DNA of 64,000 bases from Eubacteriales bacterium (GTDB taxonomy: Bacteria > Bacillota > Clostridia > Oscillospirales > CAG-382), in NCBI GenBank assembly GCA_045595165.1, contig JAZNZY010000003.1:1374-65373 (forward strand). The letters run 5' to 3'. Shown here piece after piece: positions 4,555-35,956 of this stretch; position 1 is the first letter of the stretch, and each line of letters starts with the position of its first letter. A model generated the notes under the pieces. That model was not told the origin of the DNA and did no database searches. It was given only the letters and a program-made list of their open reading frames with translations. Both the position numbers and the translations under genes were made by a program.

Positions 4555-5931
4555 TTAAATAATCGGGAAGAAGATATCATAAAAAGAGTAATATTTGTGA
4601 TACCACGCGCCGAAGCCTTCGTATTCGCGTACCGAATGTCCGCCGGTGGCGTAGGAATGGTACTCCTTCTTTATAATTTCTCCGTCTTCGTTATAAGTGT
4701 ATTCCCAAACCTCGTCTTGTTTACCGCTGAACTCGTTGTATCCTTTTTCCACCGATTTTATAATTCTTCCGTATTCATCGGTGGTATACTCAATACGTCC
4801 GTAACTATTAAGTCCGTCTATAGAATCCCATTCCTCGGATTTAATAAAACCGTTTTCGTCGTATTCGTATACATAGCGGTAAATTTGATTTTCTCCGCTT
4901 TTCTTTTCCTTGACCAAAAGATTTCCGTTTTCATCGTAGGTTCGGGTTTCGATAGCGATAGTTCCGTCAAAATACGGTTCTTCCGTCTTTACAAGCTTAC
5001 CGTTTTCTCCGTAGGTATACTTGGTTATACTGCCGTTAAGGGATTCCTCGATAATTCTTCCTTGTTCATCGTGCTTCCATTTCTGTATACGGTAAACTCC
5101 CATATCGCTTTTGTAGGTTTCGTAGTGGATAATTCTTCCGTTACCGTCATAAGCAAATCTTTTTATTTCCAAAACGTCGTCGGAAGAATGGGTGGTGGTT
5201 TCAATCCGTTCAAGCATACCGTAATCGTTCCAGAAAAACAGCTTTGTCTGCGAATATCCGTCCCGTATTTCAGTACGCTTGATAAGTCTTCCCTCGGAAT
5301 CGTAATAATATTTATGATAACTGTCCGAAACCGTGTGTAACAAACCGTTGCTGTCGAAGTAAAATCCGGTTACGCTGTCGTGAGGTGATCCTGAGCCGTG
5401 GTGGTATTCGTATACTGTCAAATATACGCTTTTGGGATTGCCGTTTTCGTAAAACCGGCAAAAATAGTTATAAGTCCCGTCTATTCCGCGTAACGTATCG
5501 TGAAACTGATACTTTTGGGTTTCATAATAAGAACCGAAGTTGTTGAGCAGTTGGGTGGCATAAATATCGTATTCTTTTTCTTTTAGCAATCTGTATGCTT
5601 GTGTGTATTCGCCGCTGTTGATAAGAGTGTGTATTTCCTCATATCCTTCCGGTATTTGTATTACATCCGGCGTTTTGGGGAAATTCTCGCTTATCATTGG
5701 CTGTGCGTAGCTTTTTTCGTCAGCGTCGCTCTCTTCCGCAGGCTTGCTTTCCTCGGGTTTGCTGTCCTCGGGTTTGCTTTCCTCGGGCGCAGATTCGTTT
5801 ACGCTTTCTTCTGCGGATTCGGAGCGGGAAACATTACTGCTCACGTCGGCGGGGTCGTCGGCTATGCATGAAACCGTAAACAAAACGATAGATAAAATAA
5901 GTGCTGTAAGTACAAAAAGCTTGGTTTTCAT
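4555..5931 (-). CDS. Lipoprotein with YD/RHS-like repeats
   Basis: Lipobox-like FTVSC, acidic S/E linker, repeated Y.YD..G.L motifs; start MKTKLF after GGAGGAG RBS. Confidence 0.75.
   Translation of the reverse strand: MKTKLFVLTALILSIVLFTVSCIADDPADVSSNVSRSESAEESVNESAPEESKPEDSKPEESKPAEESDADEKSYAQPMISENFPKTPDVIQIPEGYEEIHTLINSGEYTQAYRLLKEKEYDIYATQLLNNFGSYYETQKYQFHDTLRGIDGTYNYFCRFYENGNPKSVYLTVYEYHHGSGSPHDSVTGFYFDSNGLLHTVSDSYHKYYYDSEGRLIKRTEIRDGYSQTKLFFWNDYGMLERIETTTHSSDDVLEIKRFAYDGNGRIIHYETYKSDMGVYRIQKWKHDEQGRIIEESLNGSITKYTYGENGKLVKTEEPYFDGTIAIETRTYDENGNLLVKEKKSGENQIYRYVYEYDENGFIKSEEWDSIDGLNSYGRIEYTTDEYGRIIKSVEKGYNEFSGKQDEVWEYTYNEDGEIIKKEYHSYATGGHSVREYEGFGAWYHKYYSFYDIFFPII
5741..5787. repeat. 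15-bp coding tandem repeat (about 3 units; E-E/D-S-K-P linker)
   Basis: GGTTTGCT(T/G)TCCTCG units. Confidence 0.8.
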
Positions 5932-5986
5932 ATGTTTCTCCTCCATTAGTAATTATATATATTCGGCTGTTAACCTTTACACTTAT

Positions 5987-11416: not shown

Positions 11417-11830
11417 CTATAATTTTCTGTTAAGCTTTTTGGTGGTCGCCTTTACGGAAAGATAAACTATAATCCATATTGTAAAATATCCTACCACAAA
11501 AATTGCCGTGAAAATAAGCACAGCCATCAGTTCAAAGGGTATCCATGTGTTGATGAGATAACATCCGACATATGCGATATAAATAGACGCGAAATGGCAA
11601 AGGAGCGATTTCGTAATCGGCCATTCCTCGATTTGGTTGAATACAGATGCTCCCGCCTGCACAAAAGCGAGAATATATGTTGATAATATGGCTATAAATA
11701 CCTGATATCCCGTAAGCGAAAAATCCGTTAACGTTTTTCCGAGAATGAGGAAAACAATCCCTGCGATTATAGGTCCGAATCCTCCGAAAGCGACACCGCG
11801 CTGTAAAAATCCTTTTAAATACTTGTTCAT
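11417..11830 (-). CDS. DUF3021-type membrane protein (putative inhibitor in a LytTR regulatory system)
   Basis: Four TM segments, IEEWPI..LLCHF motif, C-terminal KKLN; coupled to the LytTR gene. Confidence 0.8.
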   Translation of the reverse strand: MNKYLKGFLQRGVAFGGFGPIIAGIVFLILGKTLTDFSLTGYQVFIAILSTYILAFVQAGASVFNQIEEWPITKSLLCHFASIYIAYVGCYLINTWIPFELMAVLIFTAIFVVGYFTIWIIVYLSVKATTKKLNRKL

Positions 11831-12261
11831 TATATTCCTATCCTTTCTTTTACCGTTTTAAACTGTCTTCGGGAAACGTAATCTTTGTACCCGTTTTTGA
11901 ATATTATAAGCATACTGCCCGATACTGACACGTCAAATTTTTTGATCTGTTTGATATTTGCTATGCAGGATTGATTTATCTTAACAAAGTTTGCGGGCAG
12001 CTTTTCTTCGAGCTGATACAAACGAGGCTTGATGACAAGCTTTTCTTCTTTTGTAAGGGCATATACCTTGTTATCCTCGGTAATAAAACAATACACCTCT
12101 GCAAGGTCTATCTGCTTGTAGGAATAATCCGCATAACCCATCACGTTAAAATTATGCTCGTTCACCGCATCGCTTATGGTTTTGATCAACTCCGAGTTTT
12201 CGTGGGTGAAAATTATTATTTCTTCTTCTCTTGTTTTATCAATATTAATGGTCAGCTTCAA
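11830..12261 (-). CDS. Stand-alone LytTR DNA-binding regulator
   Basis: RLYQLEEKLP..FVKINQSCIAN, YVSRR; TTG start after AAAGGAGG; no receiver domain. Confidence 0.88.
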   Translation of the reverse strand: MKLTINIDKTREEEIIIFTHENSELIKTISDAVNEHNFNVMGYADYSYKQIDLAEVYCFITEDNKVYALTKEEKLVIKPRLYQLEEKLPANFVKINQSCIANIKQIKKFDVSVSGSMLIIFKNGYKDYVSRRQFKTVKERIGI

Positions 12262-12322
12262 AGCACGTCCTCCTTTCAAAAAATAATATACACCGTTTTT
12301 CCGCCGTTTTCAACTGTTTTGA

Positions 12323-16828: not shown

Positions 16829-16847
16829 TCGTATCACCGCCTTTCGT
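16829..16847. repeat. 19-bp direct repeat, copy A
   Basis: TCGTATCACCGCCTTTCGT, identical to 17658-17676. Confidence 0.9.
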
Positions 16848-17658
16848 ATATTTGTGTACAGTAATTTTGGCAGAAATCCTTCACAACAGATTTTATGGAA
16901 CCGTCTATTCGCATATCGCAAAAGCGTTTTATATGTTCGGGAATTTCTTTATAATATGCTTCTGCAATTCCGCCGGCGATACAAGCCTGCGTATCTGCAT
17001 CACCGCCGAGAGAAACGGCATTTCTGATGGCGCTTTCATAATCTGTTGATTCCAGAAACGCAATTATGGCCGGAGGAACGCTGTATGATGTACGGCTGTC
17101 GAACACGTGAGTTTCTTTTATAGCGGAAAGGGGAACAGACAGCTTGAATTTGAATGTTTTTTCCAAATATGTCTTTATGTTTTCTTTGCTCTCTCCGTTT
17201 CGTGCCAAAAAGACTGCAGCGGCAACAGCTTGTGCGCCTTTTATTGCCTCTTTGTGGTTGTGCGTGGAAATACAACTCGCTTTTGCTTGCAAAAGTGTCT
17301 GTTCCAAAGTATTGTAGGCATATCCGATAGGGATCACACGCATGGATGCACCGTTGGCATAGCTGTGCCCGTTTTTTGAATACGGGTCTTTCGCCCAAGC
17401 GGTGAACATATTGCCGAATCCGGCATGGGGATGATACGAATAATATCGGCGGTATTGAGCGGCGTATTCTCTTGAACGGGCGCGGATACTCCATTTGGAT
17501 ATATCGTTTGGAGCAGTAATTATTGCTTTACATACCGCCGCAATCAAAACGCTGTCATCGGTAAAGAAACTGTCTTTATTGAATTCAAAATTATAATCCT
17601 TTGTACAATGCACTTCATAGTACGAGCCGATTACATCTCCGTATATTGCGCCAAACAT
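16834..17658 (-). CDS. ADP-ribosylglycohydrolase (ARH/DraG family)
   Basis: GAIYGDVIGS, FTDDS, SYANGASMR, STH, LGGDADT. Confidence 0.92.
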   Translation of the reverse strand: MFGAIYGDVIGSYYEVHCTKDYNFEFNKDSFFTDDSVLIAAVCKAIITAPNDISKWSIRARSREYAAQYRRYYSYHPHAGFGNMFTAWAKDPYSKNGHSYANGASMRVIPIGYAYNTLEQTLLQAKASCISTHNHKEAIKGAQAVAAAVFLARNGESKENIKTYLEKTFKFKLSVPLSAIKETHVFDSRTSYSVPPAIIAFLESTDYESAIRNAVSLGGDADTQACIAGGIAEAYYKEIPEHIKRFCDMRIDGSIKSVVKDFCQNYCTQIYERR

Positions 17659-17676
17659 CGTATCACCGCCTTTCGT
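17658..17676. repeat. 19-bp direct repeat, copy B
   Basis: TCGTATCACCGCCTTTCGT, identical to 16829-16847. Confidence 0.9.
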
Positions 17677-17682
17677 GTTTTT

Positions 17683-17711
17683 ATCATATCACAATTTCTT
17701 AAATAAATCAA
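17683..17711 (-). promoter_or_regulatory. Sigma-A-like promoter heading the minus-strand gene run
   Basis: TTGATT-17 nt-TATGAT with extended TG. Confidence 0.6.
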
Positions 17712-17723
17712 GGCGCAAGACTT

Positions 17724-17899
17724 GTATATCATCCGCAACTTGTTGCGGTATGGAATTGGCACGAAGTGCCGTATGGAATCATCACGAAGTGATGTATGGC
17801 ATCAATCCGAAGGTGGATACACGCTGACGCGTGATGCCATACGCCTGCGGCGATTCCATACACCCTGCGGGTGATTACATACCAATCCTTCGGATTGGA
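17724..17899. repeat. Nested inverted-repeat and hairpin ladder element
   Basis: GTATGG(A/C)AT(C/T) at 17748, 17771, 17794; inverse GAT(G/T)(C/A)CATAC at 17833, 17852, 17873; units separated by short hairpins. Confidence 0.85.
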
Positions 17900-17900
17900 T

Positions 17901-17936
17901 AGCAAAAAGCACTTGCGAAAGCAAGTGCTTTTTGCT
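17901..17936 (-). terminator. tRNA terminator
   Basis: AGCAAAAAGCACTTGC-GAAA-GCAAGTGCTTTTTGCT perfect stem. Confidence 0.85.
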
Positions 17937-18011
17937 GGCAGGGATAGCTGGATTCGAACCAGCGAGATGACGGAGTCAAAGTCCGTTGCCTTACCGCTTG
18001 GCTATATCCCT
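17936..18011 (-). tRNA. tRNA-Gln (UUG), CCA encoded
   Basis: Cloverleaf AGGGATA..GCCAAGCGGTAAGGC..ACGGA-CTTTGAC-TCCGT..GCTGGTTCGAATCCAGC-TATCCCT-G-CCA. Confidence 0.97.
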
Positions 18012-18029
18012 ATATTAAATTGCCAAATG

Positions 18030-18058
18030 ATTATATAACAAATAACTCTTTTTGTCAA
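18030..18058 (-). promoter_or_regulatory. Consensus sigma-A promoter of the tRNA
   Basis: TTGACA-17 nt-TATAAT. Confidence 0.85.
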
Positions 18059-18140
18059 GAGAAATAAAAGCAAGAGTTTTGTTGATTTTATTAGCATTAT
18101 ATGTTAAAATGCTTATATTAAAGTGCGCGAGGTAGTAAAT

Positions 18141-19958
18141 ATGAAAAAATGGTCTTTTTACACTTCCAATGAAATAAAGCCTTTGGGATGGGTAAAGCGT
18201 CAGCTTGAAATACAGGCGCAGTCCCTTTGCGGAAACCTACACAAGGTCTGGCCCGATGTGCGTGACAGCAAGTGGATCGGCGGTACGGCAGAAGGCTGGG
18301 AGCGTGTCCCTTATTGGCTGGACGGATTTATACCCATGGCGTATCTCCTTGAAGACGAAGAGCTTATTTCCGTAGCCCAAAAATATATGGACGCAATACT
18401 CTCTTTCCAACAGCCCGACGGATGGCTGTGCCCCTGCGAAGAGGAAAAGCGTCCCACTTACGATACCTGGGCGGTGTTGCTGCTTTCCAAGGTGCTCACC
18501 GTGTATTACCAATGCTCGGGCAAAGAGCAGGCGGTGGATGCGCTGTATAAAATGCTTAAAAACTATCACGAACTGCTCAAAAACGGCACGGTAAAGCTGT
18601 TTGAGTGGGGAAAATACCGTTGGTACGAAGGATTTATCGCTATCGACTTTTTGTATTCCCGCTGCGGCGAAGAATGGCTTTTGGACCTTGCTCGCATACT
18701 TAAAGAGCAGGGAATGGATTACGATACTGTAACCCACCTCTGGGAACGCCCTATGAACTGGTGGCGGTTTGATACACATATAGTAAACCTTGCAATGATG
18801 CTTAAATCCGAAGCGGTATCTGCGGCTCTTCTCGGTGATCAGTACACGGATAAAGCACAAAAATACTACGATATTCTGGAAAAGTACAACGGTATGCCCG
18901 CAGGCGTTTTCACGGGGGATGAATGTCTTTCCGGCGTAAGCCCCATTCAGGGCGCGGAGCTTTGCTCGGTAGTGGAATTAATGTATTCCTATGAGCATCT
19001 CTATGCCTGCACCGGGGATAAAAAGTGGGCGGAACGTCTGGAGAAAATTGCCTTCAACGCACTTCCCGCCGCTATAAGCGACGATATGTGGGCGCACCAG
19101 TATGTTCAGCAAAGCAACCAGATATCCTGCATACGCTTCCCCGGAAAATCCGTTTTCCGCACCAACAACAGCGAAGCCCACCTTTTCGGTCTTGAGCCCA
19201 ATTTCGGATGCTGTACGGCGAATTTCGGTCAGGGCTGGCCCAAGCTTGTGCTGTCCTCATTTATGTATAACGGGGATAGGGTTATAAATGCCGTTCCCGT
19301 TCCCTCGGTACTTAAGACGGAGGACGTATATGTTTCTCTTGAAACCGAGTATCCCTTCAAAAACACCTTTAAATACACCGTAAAAGCGGAAAAAGATTTT
19401 ACTCTCGTTCTCCGCGTGCCCACCTTTGCCGTCGATTATACCGTTAACGGCGAAAAAGCGTGGGTTGAGGAGGTTTCCGTGCCCGTAAAGGCAGGGGAAA
19501 ACAAGGTCATTAACGTGTCCTTTGAAGTAACACCTCGTTTTGAAAAACGTTCGGGCAACCTCAACACGGTGGAAATGGGCTCTCTGCTGTTCTCCCTGCC
19601 CATAGAGTACCGCACCCTTATAAAGGAATACGAGCGTGACGGTGTGGAGCGCAAATTCCCGTACTGCGATTACGAATATTACCCCGAAACTCCTTGGCAG
19701 TTCGGCTTTGCGGATACTGCTTTAAAAGCAGAATACCGCGGTGTTACCGAAACTCCTTTTTCTTCCCACAATCCCCCCGTTATCGTAAAAGCGAGCGTAA
19801 ATGAAATCGCTTGGGGCTATGCGGACGGATACGATACCGTCTGTGCAAAATATCCCGAGAGCCGCGAGGGCATTGGCGAAGTGAAGGAGATAGAACTGTA
19901 TCCTTACGGCTGTGCAAAGCTTCGTATGACTGAGCTTCCTTTCTGCGAAGAGGAATGA
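18141..19958 (+). CDS. GH127/GH146-like beta-L-arabinofuranosidase domain protein
   Basis: GWERVPYWLDG, H.VN, ELCSVVE.M.S, E..AFNALP, CCTANFGQGWP. Confidence 0.85.
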   Translation: MKKWSFYTSNEIKPLGWVKRQLEIQAQSLCGNLHKVWPDVRDSKWIGGTAEGWERVPYWLDGFIPMAYLLEDEELISVAQKYMDAILSFQQPDGWLCPCEEEKRPTYDTWAVLLLSKVLTVYYQCSGKEQAVDALYKMLKNYHELLKNGTVKLFEWGKYRWYEGFIAIDFLYSRCGEEWLLDLARILKEQGMDYDTVTHLWERPMNWWRFDTHIVNLAMMLKSEAVSAALLGDQYTDKAQKYYDILEKYNGMPAGVFTGDECLSGVSPIQGAELCSVVELMYSYEHLYACTGDKKWAERLEKIAFNALPAAISDDMWAHQYVQQSNQISCIRFPGKSVFRTNNSEAHLFGLEPNFGCCTANFGQGWPKLVLSSFMYNGDRVINAVPVPSVLKTEDVYVSLETEYPFKNTFKYTVKAEKDFTLVLRVPTFAVDYTVNGEKAWVEEVSVPVKAGENKVINVSFEVTPRFEKRSGNLNTVEMGSLLFSLPIEYRTLIKEYERDGVERKFPYCDYEYYPETPWQFGFADTALKAEYRGVTETPFSSHNPPVIVKASVNEIAWGYADGYDTVCAKYPESREGIGEVKEIELYPYGCAKLRMTELPFCEEE

Positions 19959-23289: not shown

Positions 23290-23994
23290 TTATAAAGGTT
23301 TTTTCATAATTCTGCCGTTTGCTCTGGGGTATTCGGCAGGGGTAGAGGATATCTTTTTTATAACTATAACGGTGTGGCTTCTGTCAAAAACGGGGATGGG
23401 AGCTTCAAAAAGCTCTGCCTCGCCGCCGCCCAGAACTTTTATGGCGTTGCGCGCTTCCTCCAGTTCTTCTCTGCCGCGGTTGCCCTTCATTGCTATAAAA
23501 TATCCGCCCTTTTTAACCAAAGGCAAACACCATTCGCACAGCACGTTAAGGCGGGCTACCCCGCGGGAAACGGCTATATCGTATTTTTCTCTGTGCCCGC
23601 CCTTGCCTGCTTCCTCTGCGCGGGCGCACAGAGTGGATATGTTGGAAATACCCGCTTCCCGCGCGGTTTCTTCAACAAATCTCAGTTTTTTTGCGGTGCT
23701 GTCCAATCCCGTGAAATGGCAGTCGGGAGCACATATCGCCAGAGGGAAGGTGGGGAACCCTCCTCCGCAGCCAATGTCAATAACCTTTTTGTTTTTAAAA
23801 AGTCCGGTTTTAAGAGGGGAGAGGGAATCCACAAAATGCAGCAGCGCAATCTCTTCGTCGGTCTTAAGGTCGGTTACGTTCAGGTTTCCTTCTATCCGTT
23901 TAAGTCCCTCCGCCACGGCGTAAAACTGCTTTTCCTGCTCCTCCGTAAAGGATATGGGGGAATATTTTTTTGTAATATCAATTATGTTTTTCAT
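23290..23994 (-). CDS. rsmG: 16S rRNA m7G527 methyltransferase
   Basis: LHFVDSL, IDIGCGGGFP, RAEE, position after mnmG. Confidence 0.95.
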   Translation of the reverse strand: MKNIIDITKKYSPISFTEEQEKQFYAVAEGLKRIEGNLNVTDLKTDEEIALLHFVDSLSPLKTGLFKNKKVIDIGCGGGFPTFPLAICAPDCHFTGLDSTAKKLRFVEETAREAGISNISTLCARAEEAGKGGHREKYDIAVSRGVARLNVLCEWCLPLVKKGGYFIAMKGNRGREELEEARNAIKVLGGGEAELFEAPIPVFDRSHTVIVIKKISSTPAEYPRANGRIMKKPL

Positions 23995-25852
23995 TGTTTT
24001 TCCTTTGAGTAAGCCATACCAGCAAAACGGAAATATCCGCAGGCGAAATGCCGGATATTCGGGATGCCTGACCAACGGAAGCGGGACGGAGTGCATTAAG
24101 CTTTTGCGCCGCTTCAAGACGTATTCCTTTGATTTGGGAATAGTCTGCGTCTGCAGGGAGCGCCTTATCCTCCAATTTGCTCACACGTTTAACCTCGTCA
24201 AGCTCTTTTTTGATATAGCCTTCGTATTTAATTTCGGTTTCTGCCCTGCGGGCAACCTCCCGCTTTACGTTGCGTCCGTCAAGAGCGCAAATATCTGCGT
24301 GGGTTATGGCGGGACGCTTTATCAGCTCCGCTTTACGCATACCGCCTTCGCTTTCGCCGTAGCCCCTCTCGGTAAGAAGCTGTGTAAGCGCCTCCGTTTT
24401 GGGCACGGAATTTGTGCGGAGATGGTTTATCTCCTCCTCCACTTCCTTGTAAAGGGCGATGTATTCGGCATATTTTTCGTCGGATATAAGCCCTGCGTAT
24501 CTGCCGTATTCTATAAGTCTTTGCTTTGCGTTGTCCTGCCTCAAAAGCAAGCGGTATTCGCTTCGGGATGTCATCATACGGTAAGGCTCATTCGTGCCCT
24601 TGGTAACCAGGTCGTCTATAAGGGTGCCGATATATCCTTCGCTCCGCTTAAGCACTATCTGCTCCCTGCCTTGAACAGCCAATGCGGCGTTTATACCCGC
24701 AATAATTCCCTGCGCCGCCGCTTCCTCGTAGCCGGAGGAGCCGTTGAACTGTCCTGCCCCGTAAAGACCTTTTAAGTTTTTAAACTCCAAGGTGGGGTGT
24801 AATTGAGTAGGGTCTGCGCAATCATATTCAATAGCGTATGCGGTGCGCATAAATACTGCGTTTTCAAGTCCCTTTATGGAATGAACTATCTGCTTTTGCA
24901 CTTCCTCGGGCAGGGATGAGGAAAGCCCCTGCAGGTACATTTCCTTGGTGTGCTCGCCCATAGGCTCTACAAATATCTGGTGTCTTTCCTTATCGGAAAA
25001 ACGCACCACTTTATCCTCTATAGAGGGGCAGTATCTGGGTCCCGTGCCCTTTATCACACCCGAAAAAAGCGGGGAACGGTGGAGGTTTTCTTTAATAATA
25101 CGGTGGGTTTCGGGATTGGTGTAGGTAATATAACATTCTCGCTTGTTTACTCCCGCCTGCTCATCGGAAAAACGTGTGGCAAACTCATCCCCAACCTGCT
25201 TTTCCATTTTATCGTAATCCAGAGAATCCGCGTGCACTCTGGGGGGAGTTCCCGTCTTGAATCGGGTAAGCTTTATTCCGTTTGCTTCCAGCGTTTGGGA
25301 AAGCTTGTCTGCGGATATGCTGTTATCGGGTCCCGAGGAATATGCGTGCTCGCCTGCAATAATTTTTCCTTTAAGGGACGTTCCCGTGGCGATTATTACC
25401 TTTTTTGCGGGAAAATGTCCTCCGAAAGCGGTGTCCACTCCCGTAATGCAACCGTCCTCGGCGGTTATTCCCGTAACCTCTGCTTGAATAAGGGTAAGGT
25501 TAGGGGTGCTTTCCACCACCTCGGTCATATAGTTTCTGTATGCAACTCTGTCCGCCTGCAGTCTTAAGGAATGTACCGCAGGTCCCTTGCTGGAATTCAG
25601 CATTCTGCTTTGAAGCATAGCGTGGTCGGCGGCTTTTCCCATTTCTCCGCCCAAAGCGTCTACCTCATATACCAGATGGCCTTTTCCCGTTCCTCCGATA
25701 GAGGGGTTGCAGGGCATATTTCCCACAAGATCAAGGGTAAGGGTGAACAGCGCCGTCTTCAAACCCATGCGTGCGGATGCAAGAGCCGCTTCAATACCTG
25801 CGTGTCCTGCACCTACCACGATTATATCATAATTTTCCGCTGTATAACTCAT
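23978..25852 (-). CDS. mnmG: tRNA uridine-5-carboxymethylaminomethyl modification enzyme
   Basis: GAGHAG, CNPSIGG, RFKTGTPPR, GPRYCPSIEDK, AGQFNGSSGYEEAAAQG. Confidence 0.98.
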   Translation of the reverse strand: MSYTAENYDIIVVGAGHAGIEAALASARMGLKTALFTLTLDLVGNMPCNPSIGGTGKGHLVYEVDALGGEMGKAADHAMLQSRMLNSSKGPAVHSLRLQADRVAYRNYMTEVVESTPNLTLIQAEVTGITAEDGCITGVDTAFGGHFPAKKVIIATGTSLKGKIIAGEHAYSSGPDNSISADKLSQTLEANGIKLTRFKTGTPPRVHADSLDYDKMEKQVGDEFATRFSDEQAGVNKRECYITYTNPETHRIIKENLHRSPLFSGVIKGTGPRYCPSIEDKVVRFSDKERHQIFVEPMGEHTKEMYLQGLSSSLPEEVQKQIVHSIKGLENAVFMRTAYAIEYDCADPTQLHPTLEFKNLKGLYGAGQFNGSSGYEEAAAQGIIAGINAALAVQGREQIVLKRSEGYIGTLIDDLVTKGTNEPYRMMTSRSEYRLLLRQDNAKQRLIEYGRYAGLISDEKYAEYIALYKEVEEEINHLRTNSVPKTEALTQLLTERGYGESEGGMRKAELIKRPAITHADICALDGRNVKREVARRAETEIKYEGYIKKELDEVKRVSKLEDKALPADADYSQIKGIRLEAAQKLNALRPASVGQASRISGISPADISVLLVWLTQRKNNEKHN

Positions 25853-25854
25853 AT

Positions 25855-27201
25855 TTATTTACCTACGCAAAAATGTGAAAAAATTTCGTTTACAATTTCC
25901 AGTGCGGCAGTTCTGCCGTCAATTTCCCCAAGTGCGGATACGGCACGTTCTATACATTCGCCCGCAATATCCTGGGTAAATCCGTCAAGGGCGTGTATAG
26001 CATCGTCAACGTTTTCCAAAGCTCTCTCAATGGCGGAAAACTGTCTTGCGGAAACGATTATATCCTGTGTGTCTGCCTCTGCCGCCCCTGCAAAGGAAAG
26101 TATTTTCTTCTGTAATTCTTCAAATCCCTCGCCCGTTGCCGCAGACATATATACTGCGTTTTCAAAGGGGGAAGCGGTTTTTTTGCCCATATCGCATTTG
26201 TTCATTACCGTTATAACACGGTCTTCTTTTCCTTTAAGCAGAGAAACAAGCTCGTTATCCTCCTCGGTAAGAGGGGAAGAACAATCAAACACCGCAATAA
26301 TAAGGGAGGATCTTTCTATTTCCTTTATACTTCTTTTAATTCCTGCCGCTTCAACGGTTTCTTCGCTTTCTCTTATTCCCGCCGTGTCCGCAAGGTTGAG
26401 CAGTACGTCCCCCACCTTAACCTGCTCGGTGATAACGTCGCGGGTGGTGCCTGCAATATCGGTTACAATGGCTCTGTCAGTACCGCATAAAAGGTTCATC
26501 AAAGTGGATTTACCCGTGTTGGGCTTGCCCGCAATAACGGTGGGTATACCTTCGGATATAGCCTTGCCGAACTTGTGAGTTCCCGCAAGGGAAACAAGCT
26601 CTGCTTTTACCTTGTTAAGCCGTGTGAGCATTTCGGGAACGGACATATCTGTCATATCCTCGTCGGGATAATCGATATACGCATACACGGTGGCGGCGGT
26701 CAAAATAAGCTCGTTACATAAAGCGTTTATTTTTTCGCTCATCTTTCCGTCCAGCTGGCGCAGGCTTACCTGAAGGTGCTTTTCGCTGTGGGCATCAATA
26801 AGTCCGCCTACCGCCTCCGCTTGGGAAAGGGTTATTTTGCCGTTTATATATGCCCGTCTTGTAAATTCTCCCGCACCTGCAGGCACAGCTCCTGCCCAAA
26901 AGCAGGCTTTAAGCAGCTTTTCCTGCACCAAGGCACCGCCGTGACAGCACAGCTCCGCCGTATCCTCCCCCGTAAATGAACGGGGAGAAATGAACATAGT
27001 TGCCATTCCGTCGTCAAAATTTCCGTCTTTATCGCAAAAATATCCGTGCACAGCCTTTCCTGCGGGATATTCGGTAATATCCTTTCCGGAAGCAGGGGAA
27101 AAAACCTTGCGGCAAACCTGCAAGGCGTCCTCTCCGGATATTCGTATAAGTGCAACGCCCCCTTTTCCTCTGGGGGTGGATATTGCCGCTACTGTGCTCA
27201 T
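25855..27201 (-). CDS. mnmE: tRNA modification GTPase
   Basis: SFTGED, GKPNTGKS, GTTRD, DTAG, NKCD, C-terminal FCVGK. Confidence 0.98.
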   Translation of the reverse strand: MSTVAAISTPRGKGGVALIRISGEDALQVCRKVFSPASGKDITEYPAGKAVHGYFCDKDGNFDDGMATMFISPRSFTGEDTAELCCHGGALVQEKLLKACFWAGAVPAGAGEFTRRAYINGKITLSQAEAVGGLIDAHSEKHLQVSLRQLDGKMSEKINALCNELILTAATVYAYIDYPDEDMTDMSVPEMLTRLNKVKAELVSLAGTHKFGKAISEGIPTVIAGKPNTGKSTLMNLLCGTDRAIVTDIAGTTRDVITEQVKVGDVLLNLADTAGIRESEETVEAAGIKRSIKEIERSSLIIAVFDCSSPLTEEDNELVSLLKGKEDRVITVMNKCDMGKKTASPFENAVYMSAATGEGFEELQKKILSFAGAAEADTQDIIVSARQFSAIERALENVDDAIHALDGFTQDIAGECIERAVSALGEIDGRTAALEIVNEIFSHFCVGK

Positions 27202-34338: not shown

Positions 34339-34381
34339 AACGGCTTTTTCCTTTTAAAATAAGGATAAAGCCGTTTTTTTG
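34339..34381 (+). terminator. Intrinsic terminator after asnB
   Basis: AACGGCTTT.TCCTT...AAGGA.AAAGCCGTT followed by T-tract. Confidence 0.7.
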
Positions 34382-34382
34382 T

Positions 34383-34420
34383 CGGGGTCCCGAAGAAGTC
34401 GCAGACTTCTTGGGGTGATT
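34383..34420 (-). repeat. Hairpin repeat family, short copy 3
   Basis: Reverse complement AATCACCCCAAGAAGTCTGCGACTTCTTCGGGACCCCG. Confidence 0.85.
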
Positions 34421-34504
34421 TGGGATTATTATGTATCAACGCTCCCTTTTTTGGACAAAATACGCATATACAATGTAGTATTATATGTTCGGGAGGTAAA
34501 GTAT

Positions 34505-34825
34505 ATGCATATTGATTACAAATTAAGAGGAACCACACTCACTGCATCGCTTCACGGAGAAATAGATCATCACACCGCGGCGATAGCCCGTTCGGAGATC
34601 GATATGGAAATAGACCGTGTAAAAGCCACGGGGCTGAATCTTGATCTTTCGGATATTTCCTTTTGCGATTCATCGGGACTTGGTCTGGTGATGGGTAGGC
34701 TTAAAAAAATGAAAGCGGGCGGCGGAAGTGCTGTAGTGGTAAATCCGTCGGAACGGGTGGAAAAGGTATTGCATCTGGCAGGAATAGACACACTTATGCC
34801 CATAAAAAAGGAGGAAAGAAAATGA
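34505..34825 (+). CDS. spoIIAA: Anti-sigma F factor antagonist
   Basis: GEIDHH, FCDSSGLG STAS motif; operon context. Confidence 0.93.
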   Translation: MHIDYKLRGTTLTASLHGEIDHHTAAIARSEIDMEIDRVKATGLNLDLSDISFCDSSGLGLVMGRLKKMKAGGGSAVVVNPSERVEKVLHLAGIDTLMPIKKEERK

Positions 34826-35271
34826 GTAAATCTCCCCTTAATCGTTTTAAGGCGGAATTTCCCGCCAAAAGTATTAACGAAGGCTATGCCAGAATGGTGG
34901 CGGCGGCTTTCGTTTCCCAGCTTGATCCCACTGTTGCGGATCTTGCGGATATAAAAACAGCGGTAAGCGAGGCGGTTACAAACTGTATCGTCCACGCATA
35001 CCGTGATAAAACGGATTATTGCCCCATCTACATAACGGGAGCATATTATGCTGACGGAAAAACAGTTATCACCGTCCGTGATAAGGGTTGTGGCATAGAG
35101 GATATATCCAAAGCGGTAACCCCTTTATATACCACGGACCCCGGGGGCGAGCGAAGCGGAATGGGTTTTACCATTATGGAAAGCTTTTGCGATAAAATGA
35201 CAGTTTCCTCCCGTGTGGGGAAGGGTACTACGGTTCGGTTGGTGAAGAAAATTGTTCGTCCGCAGTCCTGA
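34822..35271 (+). CDS. spoIIAB: Anti-sigma F factor
   Basis: KTAVSEAVTNCIVHAY, ERSGMGFTIMESF. Confidence 0.96.
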   Translation: MSKSPLNRFKAEFPAKSINEGYARMVAAAFVSQLDPTVADLADIKTAVSEAVTNCIVHAYRDKTDYCPIYITGAYYADGKTVITVRDKGCGIEDISKAVTPLYTTDPGGERSGMGFTIMESFCDKMTVSSRVGKGTTVRLVKKIVRPQS

Positions 35272-35956
35272 TACTCCGTCACTCATAGCCTCCGCACAGC
35301 AGGGGGACAAGGAAGCGTTGGATATTCTTGTAAAAGAGAATATGGGCTTGGTAAAATCTATTGCTTTTCGCTTCCGCGACCGTGCCGAAATCGATGATCT
35401 TATTCAGCTGGGCGTAATAGGGCTTATAAAGGCGATACGGGGCTTTTCTTTTGAACGTGAAACCGTTTTGTCTACCTATGCTGTTCCTTTGATCACGGGG
35501 GAAATAAAGCGTTTTTTAAGGGATGACGGTACCGTTAAGGTTTCCCGAGAACTGAAAAAACGAGGAAGAACAGTACTTAAAGCGAGGGAATATATAATTT
35601 CCGAAACAGGCAGTGAGCCTACCTTAAAATATCTGGCAGAGTATTGCGGTCTTTCCGAAGAGCAGACCTTGGAAGCACTGGATTGCGCTTTGCCCATACT
35701 ATCCTTTTCCTCCCCCGTGGGGGACAAAACGGTGGAGGAATATGTGGGGGAAGACTGTATGGCACCGCTAACGGAAAGCATTGCTCTTACCCAAGCGATA
35801 GGTGCCCTTCCCGAGGAAGAACGGGTTTTGGTGGAATGCCGCTTTTACCGCGGTCTTTCCCAACAGCAAACGGGTGTCATTCTGGGCTGTACCCAGGTGA
35901 AAATATCCCGTATGGAAAAAAGAGTAATAGAAAAATTAAGACAGCAGTTAAAATGA
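35252..35956 (+). CDS. sigF: Sporulation sigma factor F
   Basis: NMGLV, DDLIQLG.IGL, STYAVPLI.GEIKRFLRDDG, QVKISR.EK; follows spoIIAB. Confidence 0.9.
   Translation: MFVRSPDTPSLIASAQQGDKEALDILVKENMGLVKSIAFRFRDRAEIDDLIQLGVIGLIKAIRGFSFERETVLSTYAVPLITGEIKRFLRDDGTVKVSRELKKRGRTVLKAREYIISETGSEPTLKYLAEYCGLSEEQTLEALDCALPILSFSSPVGDKTVEEYVGEDCMAPLTESIALTQAIGALPEEERVLVECRFYRGLSQQQTGVILGCTQVKISRMEKRVIEKLRQQLK

Follow-up and report, generated by a model that had tools for sequence, protein, structure and literature searches.

The window analysed here, a stretch of 64,000 nucleotides of DNA, carries directly behind a tRNA-Gln gene an array of repeated 10-nt words and small hairpins, and the question raised by this locus is what the array is and in which form, RNA or DNA, it is maintained. 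An earlier note had read it as a BIME-like mobile unit, a folded recombination site or an ncRNA, in which nested 10-mers could pair into stacked four-way junctions. The element is a non-coding, dispersed and modular piece of DNA of about 250 bases located directly 3' of a tRNA gene. A covariance model finds a single copy in the 64-kb window, at 17683-17936, which starts directly after the end of tRNA-Gln with the array 3' of that gene. Its parts and neighbours are as follows.

17936..18011, minus strand: tRNA-Gln (UUG) with encoded CCA end (ARAGORN; Rfam tRNA 66.3 bits)
17901..17936, either strand: bidirectional intrinsic terminator consisting of an A-tract, a 16-bp perfect stem (16/16) and a T-tract; an inverted repeat that folds on both strands
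17883..17899, minus strand: hairpin H0, CCAATCC-GAA-GGATTGG, with a CCGAAGG mini-hairpin core
17833..17882, minus strand: proximal arm with units GTATGTAATC, GTATGGAATC and GTATGGCATC (model, 117.9 bits)
within 17833..17882, minus strand: proximal-arm hairpins between the units, ACCC-GCA-GGGT and GCC-GCA-GGC
17821..17832, minus strand: apical hairpin, ACGC-GTCA-GCGT, with closing pair C17820:G17833
17803..17820, minus strand: centre, comprising a partial unit (GTAT), a pyrimidine linker and CCTTCGGATTG
17724..17803, plus strand: distal arm with four units, GTATATCATC, GTATGGAATT, GTATGGAATC and GTATGGCATC (plus-strand match of the model, 57.5 bits)
17734-17747, 17758-17770 and 17781-17793, plus strand: distal-arm hairpins CGCAAC-TT-GTTGCG, GGCAC-GAA-GTGCC and ATCAC-GAA-GTGAT, respectively
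17683..17723, minus strand: tail, comprising an imperfect terminal hairpin (17710-17723), a truncated unit AATC (17706-17709) and the outward promoter
17711-17683, minus strand: predicted sigma-70-type promoter, -35 TTGATT (17711-17706) and -10 TATGAT (17688-17683) with a 17-nt spacer (9/12 matches, TG before the -10 box)
16834..17658, minus strand: ADP-ribosylglycohydrolase gene, a neighbour outside the element served by the predicted promoter (Pfam PF03747, E = 1.2e-30)

The repeats enumerated in the earlier note were all recovered. Read on the plus strand, the left arm has GTATGGAATT at 17748, GTATGGAATC at 17771 and GTATGGCATC at 17794, spaced by exactly 23 nt, plus a degenerate GTATATCATC at 17724, and the three left spacer mini-hairpins lie where they had been placed. 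The right arm has GATGCCATAC (17833), GATTCCATAC (17852) and GATTACATAC (17873), with the hairpins GCC-TGC-GGC, ACCC-TGC-GGGT and CCAATCC-TTC-GGATTGG (17883-17899). The array also lies, as described, between the tRNA terminator (17901-17936) and the minus-strand promoter (17711-17683). The apical hairpin at 17821-17832 had not been listed, nor had an 11/11 inverted repeat of the centre (17803-17813) with the last hairpin (17887-17897); CCTTCGGATTG in the centre is an inverted copy of the 5' half of H0 plus its loop.

The structure of this copy is not due to chance. With one mismatch or fewer, the 10-mer occurs at eight sites in the 64-kb window, six of which fall inside 17748-17882; at two or fewer mismatches there is no overall enrichment in the window (63 found vs 52 expected). 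Fold z-scores were -8.8 and -9.2 as RNA including the terminator, and -7.2 and -7.4 as DNA excluding it, with 0/200 shuffles equally stable in each case. Folding, a check proposed in the earlier note, thus gave a very stable structure on both strands, and this is one of the points that speak for a structured RNA. Such an RNA would be either a plus-strand sRNA running toward the shared terminator or a leader or trailer on the tRNA strand, with its hairpins set between GUAUGNNAUC words.

The family was searched for with a pattern scan demanding three strict 10-mers, followed by the covariance model. Among the matches listed, the model hit at least 64 loci (64/122 fetched loci), nearly all labelled Clostridia, so that the homologues which the earlier note proposed to seek in Clostridia MAGs exist. 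The carriers are gut Clostridia labelled Acutalibacteraceae, Oscillospiraceae, Ruminococcaceae, Christensenellaceae and similar. Pattern matches in Bacteroidales, cyanobacteria, archaea and others proved to be unrelated simple tandem repeats lacking palindromic spacers and were not counted, and two weak model matches (L022, 36.8 bits; L083, 27.7 bits) are regarded as doubtful. Members start immediately after a tRNA or tmRNA gene, at its CCA end. Of the 48 strong copies among the matches listed, 28 have a same-strand tRNA whose end lies 23-42 nt upstream of the module, always on the same side, which bears out the suspected proximity to tRNAs. The window copy, L093 and L075 all lie behind tRNA-Gln(UUG), that is, at orthologous positions which have been kept.

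The family appears to be undescribed so far. When the whole window was compared with Rfam 15 at the gathering score, the tRNA alone passed; at E up to 10, the array within 17600-18020 was covered only by short chance matches of 19 bits or less. The array therefore matches no Rfam family at either setting, so that this refuting condition of the earlier note did not arise, and the missing match counts against a structured RNA. Comparison with plasmid and phage collections by blastn yielded matches of 28-35 nt only (E of at least 0.2), all but one in the terminator, and searches of the literature by the 10-mers or by topic found no relevant description.

The order of parts is conserved across the family: a bidirectional terminator, H0, three units of GTATGNNATC plus palindrome, the apical hairpin, an inverted partial copy of H0 and a run of inverted units, which is variable in length and often followed by a sigma-70 promoter facing outward. 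In each repeat unit a 10-nt word (GTATGNNATC) precedes a short perfect hairpin, whose sequence is free, whose closing pair is C:G and whose loop is G(N)NA. Since the units of both arms point to the centre, the strand that carries word and loop switches there. Units, wobble pairs and promoters were counted in 38 oriented members (L017, L082 and L112 left out). Proximal units number three in 36/38, while distal units number three in 18/38, four in 12/38 and take other values in 8/38; this unconserved distal number is not expected of a structured RNA. The unit spacing ranges from 19 to 27 nt, and the spacers, mostly 9-14 nt long, include 193 distinct sequences among 270.

The hairpins are clearly maintained. 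In the 270 spacers, 93-97% of symmetric positions are Watson-Crick pairs vs approximately 30% in shuffles. The side hairpins are 97.1% paired and show 100 two-sided changes vs 28.2 +/- 4.1 in shuffles (0/500 shuffles as high), and a control in which the partners were slid gave 16-45% pairing. Alignment A1, comprising 36 sequences (two of the 38 oriented elements, which do not have exactly three proximal units, were left out), was scored helix by helix. Helix 1 (H0) is 97.6% paired, with changes from U:A to G:C in 10/36 sequences, and its loop is GAA in 21/30 parsed copies; helices 2 and 3 of the proximal arm are 97.9% and 99.3% paired; helix 4 (apical) is paired at 93%, with two-sided change of the inner pair (columns 104:118 of the alignment) in 17/36. 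That the side hairpins are kept as structure, and hence selected, is strongly supported; compensatory change is abundant in them. The repeat shared by H0 and the centre matches at 7-11 of 11 positions across the family, mostly 10-11. The corresponding helix is 91.9% paired, and even the loop position covaries (A:U in 24 sequences, C:G in 8).

These data, namely hairpins that covary and an alternative H0-centre helix of 9-11 bp that covaries together with its loop position, favour the structured RNA too; H0 and the H0-centre helix might then form a switch, and the RNA could be a sponge for a protein, a site of processing or the leader of the downstream gene. Further, an A-tract and a T-tract flank the terminator in every inspected copy, which would be expected of a terminator that transcripts also reach from the array.

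The pairing of the 10-mers themselves is another matter. In the window copy the two inner rungs are indeed perfect (11/11 and 10/10) and the outer one matches at 9/10. Over 40 parsed elements, in-register Watson-Crick pairing at the variable 10-mer positions 2, 5, 6 and 7 was 0.69, 0.79, 0.65 and 0.59, and after a shift by one rung it was 0.64-0.67, 0.74-0.75, 0.64-0.65 and 0.57-0.62, respectively. At position 7 the innermost proximal unit retains a C, to which its partner is usually non-complementary, and the arms are unequal in unit number in most copies. Selection of the rungs as pairs is not supported. The stacked four-way junctions built from nested 10-mers are likewise not supported: in the parsed elements there is no effect of register, so that the refuting condition set in the earlier note, a lack of covariation in the 10-mer pairings, applies, and the arms are mostly unequal. 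The complementarity of the rungs probably arises solely from one word occurring in both orientations.

In which nucleic acid, then, do the hairpins fold? Among 224 tri- and tetraloops, G(N)NA accounts for 129 and T(N)NC for none. Of the 241 spacer hairpins with a scorable stem, 204 are closed by C:G and 140 have triloops. GNRA accounts for 26/84 tetraloops, which is in keeping with RNA; the triloops, and the 19/45 GNNA tetraloops that are not GNRA, are not. G(N)NA loops occur only on the strand where the unit reads GTATG, with the polarity flipping at the centre: on the tRNA strand they make up 45/69 loops in the proximal arm, 25/30 in H0 and 21/31 in the apical hairpin, and on the opposite strand 31/68 in the distal arm. 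Any single transcript would consequently have U(N)NC loops in one of its arms. Convergent transcripts entering from both sides would give an identical loop polarity. On the tRNA strand, G-U and A-C mismatches number 5 v 4 in the proximal arm, 7 v 9 in the distal arm and 13 v 10 in the H0-centre helix. An assignment of strand by wobble pairs was tried and abandoned, as G-U and A-C are equally rare on both strands and give no bias either way. The flip in loop polarity at the centre and the lack of a G-U excess over A-C on either strand make a single folded ncRNA unlikely. In addition, a scan predicted no promoter for a plus-strand RNA upstream of or within the array in the window. Taken over its several forms, the structured RNA is an unlikely explanation, if one worth keeping in mind.

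Folded mini-hairpins of single-stranded DNA fit better than one folded RNA, judging from loop chemistry and strand symmetry. The DNA mini-hairpin motif is defined by C:G-closed d(GNA) and d(GNNA) loops (PMC13037366; PMC3201870), and the array conforms to this definition, of the d(GCGNAGC)/d(GCGNNAGC) type, with each arm on its own strand. The guess of a BIME-like mobile unit or folded ssDNA is thus the best-fitting of the three in the earlier note, and the ncRNA is the one disfavoured by the polarity flip and the missing G-U excess. A review reports mini-hairpins at the origin of phage G4 and in the hairpin promoters of N4, and gives CCGAAGG, the core of H0, as a mini-hairpin sequence of the RSF1010 ssiA (PMC13037366).

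By analogy with these sites, the array could be a signal serving the host, that is, a chromosomal counterpart of single-strand initiation signals or hairpin promoters. Whichever strand is exposed first by a fork or polymerase from either side would carry GTATG words and mini-hairpins, and these could keep SSB off and bring in a primase, a helicase or some other factor, for instance for fork restart or pausing behind heavily transcribed tRNA genes. Inward-facing units on both sides are symmetric for a machine from either direction, the hairpins obey the DNA mini-hairpin rule down to the ssiA-like core of H0, and orthologous positions are kept behind tRNA-Gln(UUG). Yet the idea is pure analogy to ssi signals known from plasmids and phages, and neither a recognition triplet for primase nor any other known signal could be identified in the array. 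It also leaves unexplained the outward promoter, the four-helix-bundle gene and the near-identical units behind different tRNAs, all described below, and we consider it rather improbable. The G4 origin, the RSF1010 ssiA and the N4 early promoters share with the array C:G-closed G(N)NA mini-hairpins on a defined strand (PMC13037366). They differ in being single phage or plasmid sites with a known enzyme partner; here a chromosomal array of at least seven hairpins with a conserved 10-nt word is mirrored about a centre. Single-strand initiation signals are defined by priming, through primase or RNA polymerase, on the folded single strand, and the array has just the chemistry of the hairpins in common with them.

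At the far end of the element, the last unit of the array forms the -35 box of the predicted promoter, a contribution to the next transcription unit that the earlier note had not mentioned. In 11/38 oriented members a TTGATT tail is followed at exactly 17 nt by a -10 box, vs 88/677 (13%) of all TTGATT/GTGATT sites in the loci. The -35 box formed by the last unit is one of the features that would suit an array of protein-binding sites in duplex DNA. The 10-mers would then be bound by a regulator or recombinase, as iterons, operators or arm-type sites are, and would control the adjacent promoter or mark a site of recombination at a tRNA integration hotspot. It is the sequence of the 10-mers that is conserved and not their pairing, they run as direct repeats in one arm and as inverted repeats in the other about a centre, and fragments of tRNA 3' ends near several arrays suggest integration hotspots. 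Spacings of 19-27 nt, however, would not place the sites on one face of the helix, and the perfect palindromy of 193 different spacers and the strand-specific G(N)NA loops would be without a role. Nor is an integrase or regulator consistently nearby; a LytTR regulator lies 5.4 kb from the array in the window, with no evidence of a link. Binding to duplex DNA as the whole explanation is therefore doubtful, in our opinion quite unlikely.

A second kind of neighbour recurs in the family. A same-strand gene for a four-helix-bundle (Avd-like) protein follows 11/47 strong copies at a distance of 78-268 nt past the module; beside the window copy there is none. We take these proteins to belong to PF05635 / TIGR02436, the '23S rRNA intervening sequence protein' family, of which the DGR protein Avd is a member. 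A link to defence systems was rejected, as PADLOC gave no match for the four-helix-bundle proteins or for the proteins neighbouring the array in the window. At five loci (L050, L043, L055, L097 and L102) the gene abuts the array and has no recognisable promoter, and consequently the array is probably a transcribed 5' leader at these loci at least. Several such genes directly behind the array and lacking their own promoter also lend some weight to the structured RNA.

Returning to the folded single-stranded DNA, we asked how the element came to lie behind so many tRNAs. When terminators were compared with gaps allowed (the ungapped version overlooks the similar pairs), near-identical ones were found behind different tRNAs: Gln and Asn (L006/L005), Met and Gln (L085/L087), Thr and Cys (L097/L056), and Gln and Arg (L093/L071). 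The similarity of L085 to L087 starts right after the CCA and stops approximately 45 nt past the array. Such near-identical units of terminator plus array behind different tRNAs indicate that the unit has relocated and that the terminator travels with the array and not with the tRNA. One unit thus occurs in different genomic contexts, as is required of a mobile non-autonomous element. Copies within a genome are as divergent as copies between genomes (e.g., L093 and L112), so that movement, if any, would be old or rare. Relocation could equally represent recombination between tRNA loci.

Neither the 64-kb window nor 122 ORFs flanking 40 family loci yielded an enzyme able to move the element (transposase, integrase, RAYT or reverse transcriptase), no target-site duplication was recognisable in the A-rich ends at the mapped boundaries, and no empty site was identified. 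Real fragments matching the 3' end of a nearby tRNA occur in three further loci only (L035, L048 and L091), displaced from the tRNA and upstream of the array, on its tRNA side; T-loop-like tails are present at certain other loci. A search beyond the array of the window for a second copy of the tRNA-Gln 3' end gave nothing above a score of 8, which, together with the lack of an integrase there and among the 122 flanking ORFs, led us to reject a lambda-type attP or the end of an integrated island for the window copy. An integron attC has R''-L''...L'-R' boxes and an integrase, a CRISPR has unique spacers between identical repeats of 24-48 nt, and a type III antitoxin consists of identical tandem repeats ahead of a toxin gene. 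All three were rejected as well, given the word of 10 nt, the palindromic 'spacers' and the inverted arms, and no genes for IntI, Cas or ToxN-like proteins were detected in the window or among the same ORFs. A cassette array between successive accessory genes does not apply, as the window has one array and a gene is flanked by arrays on both sides in L005 only.

Among the closest known counterparts are dispersed repeats. The REP elements of Enterobacteria and Pseudomonas are extragenic, multi-copy and modular, consist of small hairpin units behind 3' ends or terminators and are mobilised by RAYT transposases; larger hairpins can form from inverted pairs, and REPs act in folded, single-stranded form. 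The array resembles REP, BIME and REPIN sequences in being extragenic, multi-copy and modular, in its small hairpin-forming units and in its place behind 3' ends and terminators. Unlike it, REPs have a conserved imperfect palindrome of about 20-40 nt with a GTAG-type head and units of alternating orientation. In the array the 10-nt linker is conserved and the hairpin sequence is free, the units are in tandem within each arm, and there is a strict tie to tRNA/tmRNA 3' ends in a fixed orientation, with its own terminator and promoter. A RAYT (Y1 HUH transposase), moreover, was found neither in the window nor among the 122 ORFs flanking 40 loci.

The pneumococcal BOX has a modular A-B(n)-C structure with a variable number of middle modules, and the Correia elements of Neisseria have outward promoters and can fold into hairpins when transcribed; both are non-autonomous intergenic repeats that alter the expression of neighbouring genes. 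The array shares the modular build and variable unit number of the former and the outward promoters of the latter. There is no sequence relationship, neither BOX nor Correia is known to be tied to tRNAs or built of word plus mini-hairpin, and in the array we found no terminal inverted repeats accompanied by a target duplication. The arm-type clusters in attP of the lambda family are several sites of about 10 bp, direct in one arm and inverted in the other, at tRNA genes, and the words of the array are disposed likewise around its centre. Here, in contrast, the arms lie side by side in the chromosome with palindromic spacers and no integrase nearby, and a near-identical unit may stand behind different tRNAs. 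Finally, 23S rRNA intervening sequences encode a four-helix-bundle protein and so provide a parallel for such a gene beside a long hairpin-forming non-coding segment at a stable-RNA gene; in the present family the gene stands beyond the inverted arms and follows tRNA genes instead of lying within rRNA. As opposed to a DGR, no reverse transcriptase or pair of template and variable repeats occurs near the four-helix-bundle genes.

On balance we tentatively favour, with somewhat less than even confidence, a dispersed modular non-coding element of gut Clostridia that is selected as folded single-stranded DNA in the manner of REP, BIME or BOX, with its words as predicted protein sites. The selected form would be DNA mini-hairpins on whichever strand carries GTATG, and the lifestyle, by analogy with REP/BIME/REPIN or BOX, would be non-autonomous. 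A cassette of terminator, array and, in part of the family, promoter may have been copied or moved among tRNA 3' flanks and, after relocation, inherited vertically with compensatory change. The element brings its own bidirectional terminator and often a complete, predicted outward promoter to restart transcription of the next gene. The 10-nt words are probable protein contact sites, for which the Avd-like four-helix-bundle protein is the best candidate by its neighbourhood only. Perhaps the arrays are the cis part of a single-stranded DNA system for tRNA/tmRNA 3' flanks, a cassette of terminator, promoter and, between them, C(GNA)G mini-hairpins in alternation with a 10-nt word, read as folded DNA by this protein and either moving site-specifically behind CCA ends or handling forks or polymerases as they leave heavily transcribed genes for stable RNAs; we hold this bolder proposal to be unlikely as it stands.

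The family is a complex, rule-bound non-coding element behind many tRNA genes in an abundant group of gut bacteria. Features that tend to be studied separately meet in it: a terminator and promoter in portable form, genes of the Avd-like four-helix-bundle family as neighbours, and DNA mini-hairpin chemistry, previously known mainly from phage and plasmid initiation sites. Their very low folding energies and real covariation will make the arrays misleading to ncRNA finders. The arrays also mark where tRNA operons end and supply predicted promoters to accessory genes, such as the ADP-ribosylglycohydrolase gene in the window. Should the single-stranded DNA system with an Avd-like protein prove true, it would be the first non-DGR role for the widespread '23S rRNA intervening sequence protein' family.

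Reading of nucleotides 17400–18200 recovered every 10-mer and mini-hairpin of the earlier note at its coordinates, and a repeat search returned both the spacing of exactly 23 nt between the three left-arm 10-mers and the two inner rungs (nested left/right pairs of 10-mers) as perfect inverted repeats. Eight sites with at most one mismatch to GTATGGAATC occur in the 64-kb window, six of them inside 17748–17882. Three features had been overlooked: a hairpin at the apex, an inverted repeat (11/11) linking the array centre with the last hairpin, and a truncated last unit which is the -35 box of the predicted promoter.

Features of the window copy
17936–18011, minus strand: tRNA-Gln
behind tRNA-Gln: perfect 16-bp hairpin with an A-tract on one side and a T-tract on the other (repeat search)
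17887–17897 and 17803–17813: last hairpin and array centre, 11/11 inverted repeat
17711–17683, minus strand: predicted promoter TTGATT-17-TATGAT; the gene downstream encodes an ADP-ribosylglycohydrolase

The surroundings are ordinary chromosome of a spore-forming Firmicute, with gidB, mnmG, mnmE and a spoIIAA-spoIIAB-sigma-F-like operon at 23293–27201 (minus strand) and 34379–35953 (plus strand); the gidB-mnmG-mnmE cluster is usually located near the replication origin. An RHS-repeat protein is encoded at 4558–5946. Genes for a LytTR DNA-binding protein and a DUF3021 membrane protein are paired at 11417–12279 (minus strand), 5.4 kb from the array. LytTR proteins bind spaced direct repeats, but nothing ties this one to the array.

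The comparison with Rfam proposed in the earlier note gave no match to the array, and plasmid and phage collections yielded only short matches (E ≥0.2). A scan of genome contigs for three GTATGNNAT words 10–15 nt apart listed at least 122 loci; the census and all counts rest on these listed matches and on a demand for three strict words, and so represent a biased sample. Approximately half of the listed loci are unrelated simple tandem repeats from other phyla. Among them, the 11–12-bp repeats of Bacteroidales MAGs (GTATGTGATTA type; L014, L033, L051, L063, L070, L078 and others) were rejected as chance pattern matches. The remainder share the build of the array and are labelled almost exclusively as Clostridia, Eubacteriales, Acutalibacteraceae, Oscillospiraceae, Ruminococcaceae or Christensenellaceae. 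A covariance model built from the conserved half of the array matched 64 of the 122 loci (E ≤0.01) and, in the window, each arm once and nothing else. The feature is real and conserved and, as far as our searches reach, belongs to an undescribed family with the following layout.

Parts of the array, read on the tRNA strand
1: tRNA with CCA end
2: A-tract, terminator stem-loop, T-tract
3: ATCC
4: hairpin H0, either CCAATCC-GAA-GGATTGG or a variant that covaries
5: three units, each GTATGNNATC plus palindrome (proximal arm)
6: apical palindrome
7: unit cut short to GTAT or GCAT, then a pyrimidine linker
8: CCTTCGGATT, which repeats the 5' half and loop of H0 in inverted orientation
9: inverted units, each GATNNCATAC plus palindrome (distal arm)
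10: tail

Among the matches listed, 36 of 38 oriented copies carry three units in the proximal arm; for the distal arm, 18 copies carry three units, 12 carry four and eight some other number. Units start 19–27 nt apart. Variants include ten distal units in L103 (160–470), with a fresh tandem duplication of one unit and its identical spacer; one-armed arrays of 9–10 units (L027:1900–2130, L028:1930–2100, L018:180–400); and a tail-to-tail pair of arms in L039/L040 (~1980–2250). A second word, GATGATATAC, is mixed into some arrays of variant architecture.

The spacers, i.e. the palindromes between the 10-mers, vary in sequence and retain their pairing: among the matches listed, 193 of 270 are distinct, and symmetric positions are Watson-Crick in 93–97% versus ~30% when shuffled. 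In alignment A1 (oriented copies with exactly three proximal units) the four hairpins are 97.1% paired, falling to 16–45% once the partners are slid. A covariation count found abundant compensatory change here: changes on both sides of a pair number 100, compared with 28.2 ± 4.1 for shuffled alignments (0/500 as high), so that the spacer hairpins are under selection. Complementarity between H0 and the centre is also kept (91.9% paired; 22 two-sided changes versus 6.8 shuffled). One H0 loop position forms A:U with the centre in 24 sequences and C:G in eight, and a single genome carries L093 (AATCC type) and L112 (AAGCC type), whose H0/centre pairs differ and are each internally matched.

A comparison of registers found no such change in the 10-mers, and gives no support to the proposed ladder of stacked four-way junctions as something conserved. 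At variable positions 2, 5, 6 and 7 the Watson-Crick fraction is 0.69, 0.79, 0.65 and 0.59 in nested register; a shift by one rung gives 0.64–0.67, 0.74–0.75, 0.64–0.65 and 0.57–0.62. Among the matches listed, 24 of 38 copies have GTATGGCATC or GTATGTCATC as third proximal unit, regardless of its partner. Because of this independence and the lack of a register effect, the 10-mer is conserved as a word and the rungs not as pairs; the arms are complementary because the word is present in both orientations, and the two perfect rungs in the window are happenstance. A word kept in this manner could also be read as the site of a duplex protein-binding array, an interpretation that we regard as improbable beside the covarying hairpins.

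The array folds far more stably than its shuffles, whether treated as RNA or as DNA.

Folding of the array (0/200 shuffles as good in each of four runs)
plus strand, RNA, 226 nt with terminator: z = -8.8
minus strand, RNA, 226 nt with terminator: z = -9.2
plus strand, DNA, 185 nt without terminator: z = -7.2
minus strand, DNA, 185 nt without terminator: z = -7.4

A structured RNA or leader would account for such folds and is nevertheless unlikely. Were RNA the form, a clear excess of G-U would be expected on either strand; however, on the tRNA strand the proximal hairpins have 5 G-U v 4 A-C mismatches, the distal hairpins 7 v 9 and the H0-centre repeat 13 v 10. Among the matches listed, on the strand reading GTATGNNATC, GNA accounts for 84 of 140 triloops and GNNA for 45 of 84 tetraloops, with no TNC or TNNC loop in either set, and a 5'-C:G-3' pair closes 204 of 241 hairpins. 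GNRA is the loop form stable in RNA, and 19 of the 45 GNNA loops depart from it. The loop polarity also flips at the array centre, and therefore no one transcript holds every hairpin in its preferred form; convergent transcripts from both sides of the array, a conceivable alternative, would produce the same polarity.

G(N)NA loops by array part
proximal arm, tRNA strand: 45/69
H0, tRNA strand: 25/30
apical hairpin, tRNA strand: 21/31
distal arm, other strand: 31/68

These loops lead us to infer folded single-stranded DNA as the selected form, in each arm on the strand that reads GTATG. A review describes GNA and GNNA loops with C:G closure as a "mini-hairpin DNA" motif, with natural examples in the phage G4 origin, RSF1010 ssiA and the phage N4 hairpin promoters (PMC13037366), and according to another paper their stability depends on the C:G closing pair (PMC3201870). 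The ssiA mini-hairpin is given in the former as CCGAAGG (PMC13037366), which is also the core of H0. By analogy, the array might act for the host as a single-strand signal to forks or polymerases, which we consider quite unlikely.

Among the matches listed, a same-strand tRNA ends 23–42 nt upstream of 28 of 48 strong modules (stretches matched by the covariance model at 75 bits or more), with eleven identities: Gln, Arg, Leu, Met, Asn, Lys, Thr, His, Cys, Tyr and Glu. Of the 20 others, five have upstream sequence too short to judge, and in three of these five it ends, by eye, in something like a T-arm plus CCA (L100, resembling tmRNA, L020 and L049); L057 follows a tRNA-like end by eye; nine are without tRNA; and five follow displaced tRNA fragments. 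Three of these fragments are in L035 (~1843–1864), L048 and L091, where the last 14–40 nt of a nearby tRNA are copied just before the terminator and array, 190–450 nt from the intact gene. Such displaced 3' fragments are the usual trace of integration into a tRNA 3' end, by which the former end is driven off together with the array. The other two are in L008 and L031, whose arrays follow a tRNA-Leu 3' fragment, read by eye; L031:2120–2849 and L008:1799–1950 are orthologous with identical terminator and array, and the insertion between tRNA-Leu and fragment is ~150 nt in L008 and ~730 nt in L031. In L029 (~1930–1975), L059, L066 and L088, all lacking a tRNA, the terminator is preceded by a short conserved motif of the gaaaatcagg...cggttCCA type, which follows a protein gene and ends in CCA or close to it.

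Near-identical terminators stand behind different tRNAs across genomes, and the terminator is therefore part of the array rather than of the tRNA. L085 (tRNA-Met) and L087 (tRNA-Gln) are alignable exactly from the CCA onward and diverge ~45 nt past the distal arm; together with the shared terminators, this makes the terminator plus array a discrete unit that has been copied, or has moved, from one tRNA flank to another. tRNA-Gln(UUG) precedes the window copy as well as L093 and L075. Several spacers are common to the window copy and L093, and others show compensatory differences, as expected if they had descended vertically after insertion.

In 11 of 38 oriented copies among the matches listed, the tail TTGATT (GTGATT in L038) has a -10 box exactly 17 nt beyond it (four TATAAT, three TATACT and one each of TACAAT, TAAAAT, TATGAT and TAAATT); the background for tail hexamers across the listed loci, scored by a looser rule, is 88/677 (13%). 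In the sub-lineage L002, L024, L005, L029, L066 and L059, the promoter spacer and -10 box are conserved before differing genes, and there the predicted promoter is part of the element. Other tails end in GTGATT and run directly into a ribosome-binding site. T-arm-like sequence (GGGTTCAAGTCC or GGTTCAAATCC type) belongs to the tail, 5–45 nt past the distal arm, in L035, L036, L085, L087 and L118, and its variants in L085 and L087 resemble the T-arm of their own upstream tRNA.

No transposase, integrase, RAYT or reverse transcriptase was found in the window or in the 122 flank ORFs of 40 family loci. The sole recurrent neighbour in these loci is a protein of 105–137 residues (TIGR02436/PF05635, E = 1e-18 to 1e-22; PF05635 matches in nine loci), annotated as a four-helix-bundle or 23S rRNA intervening-sequence protein, the closest solved structure being 2RLD. 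Using tblastn, its gene was located in 15 listed loci and is absent from the 64-kb window. Among the matches listed, 11 of 47 strong modules have it on their own strand, starting 78–268 nt past the module; these copies lie behind at least six tRNA species, and in some of them no promoter stands between array and ribosome-binding site. The L031 insertion contains a second, more distant gene of this type (2264–2674).

Examples of TIGR02436/PF05635 genes directly behind the distal arm
L050:1530–1886, minus strand
L072:1482–1832, minus strand
L005:1463–1819, minus strand
L003:1471–1830, minus strand
L056:2042–2410, plus strand

Members of this family are encoded inside rRNA intervening sequences, and Avd, a DGR protein, belongs to it. 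One review mentions PF05635 in the DGR context (PMC10053308).

XRE-type HTH, Fic and GNAT genes recur on the distal side of arrays. TIR-STING proteins are a type of defence effector, and one (Pfam CAP12-PCTIR_TIR and prok_STING) is encoded among the variable distal-side genes at L002:605–1570 (minus strand).

Our leading, though tentative, reading is that the array may be a non-autonomous, relocatable terminator-array-promoter cassette trailing tRNA genes, with folded single-stranded DNA as the selected form. It would be copied or moved between tRNA flanks as a terminator-array unit and would thereafter descend vertically.
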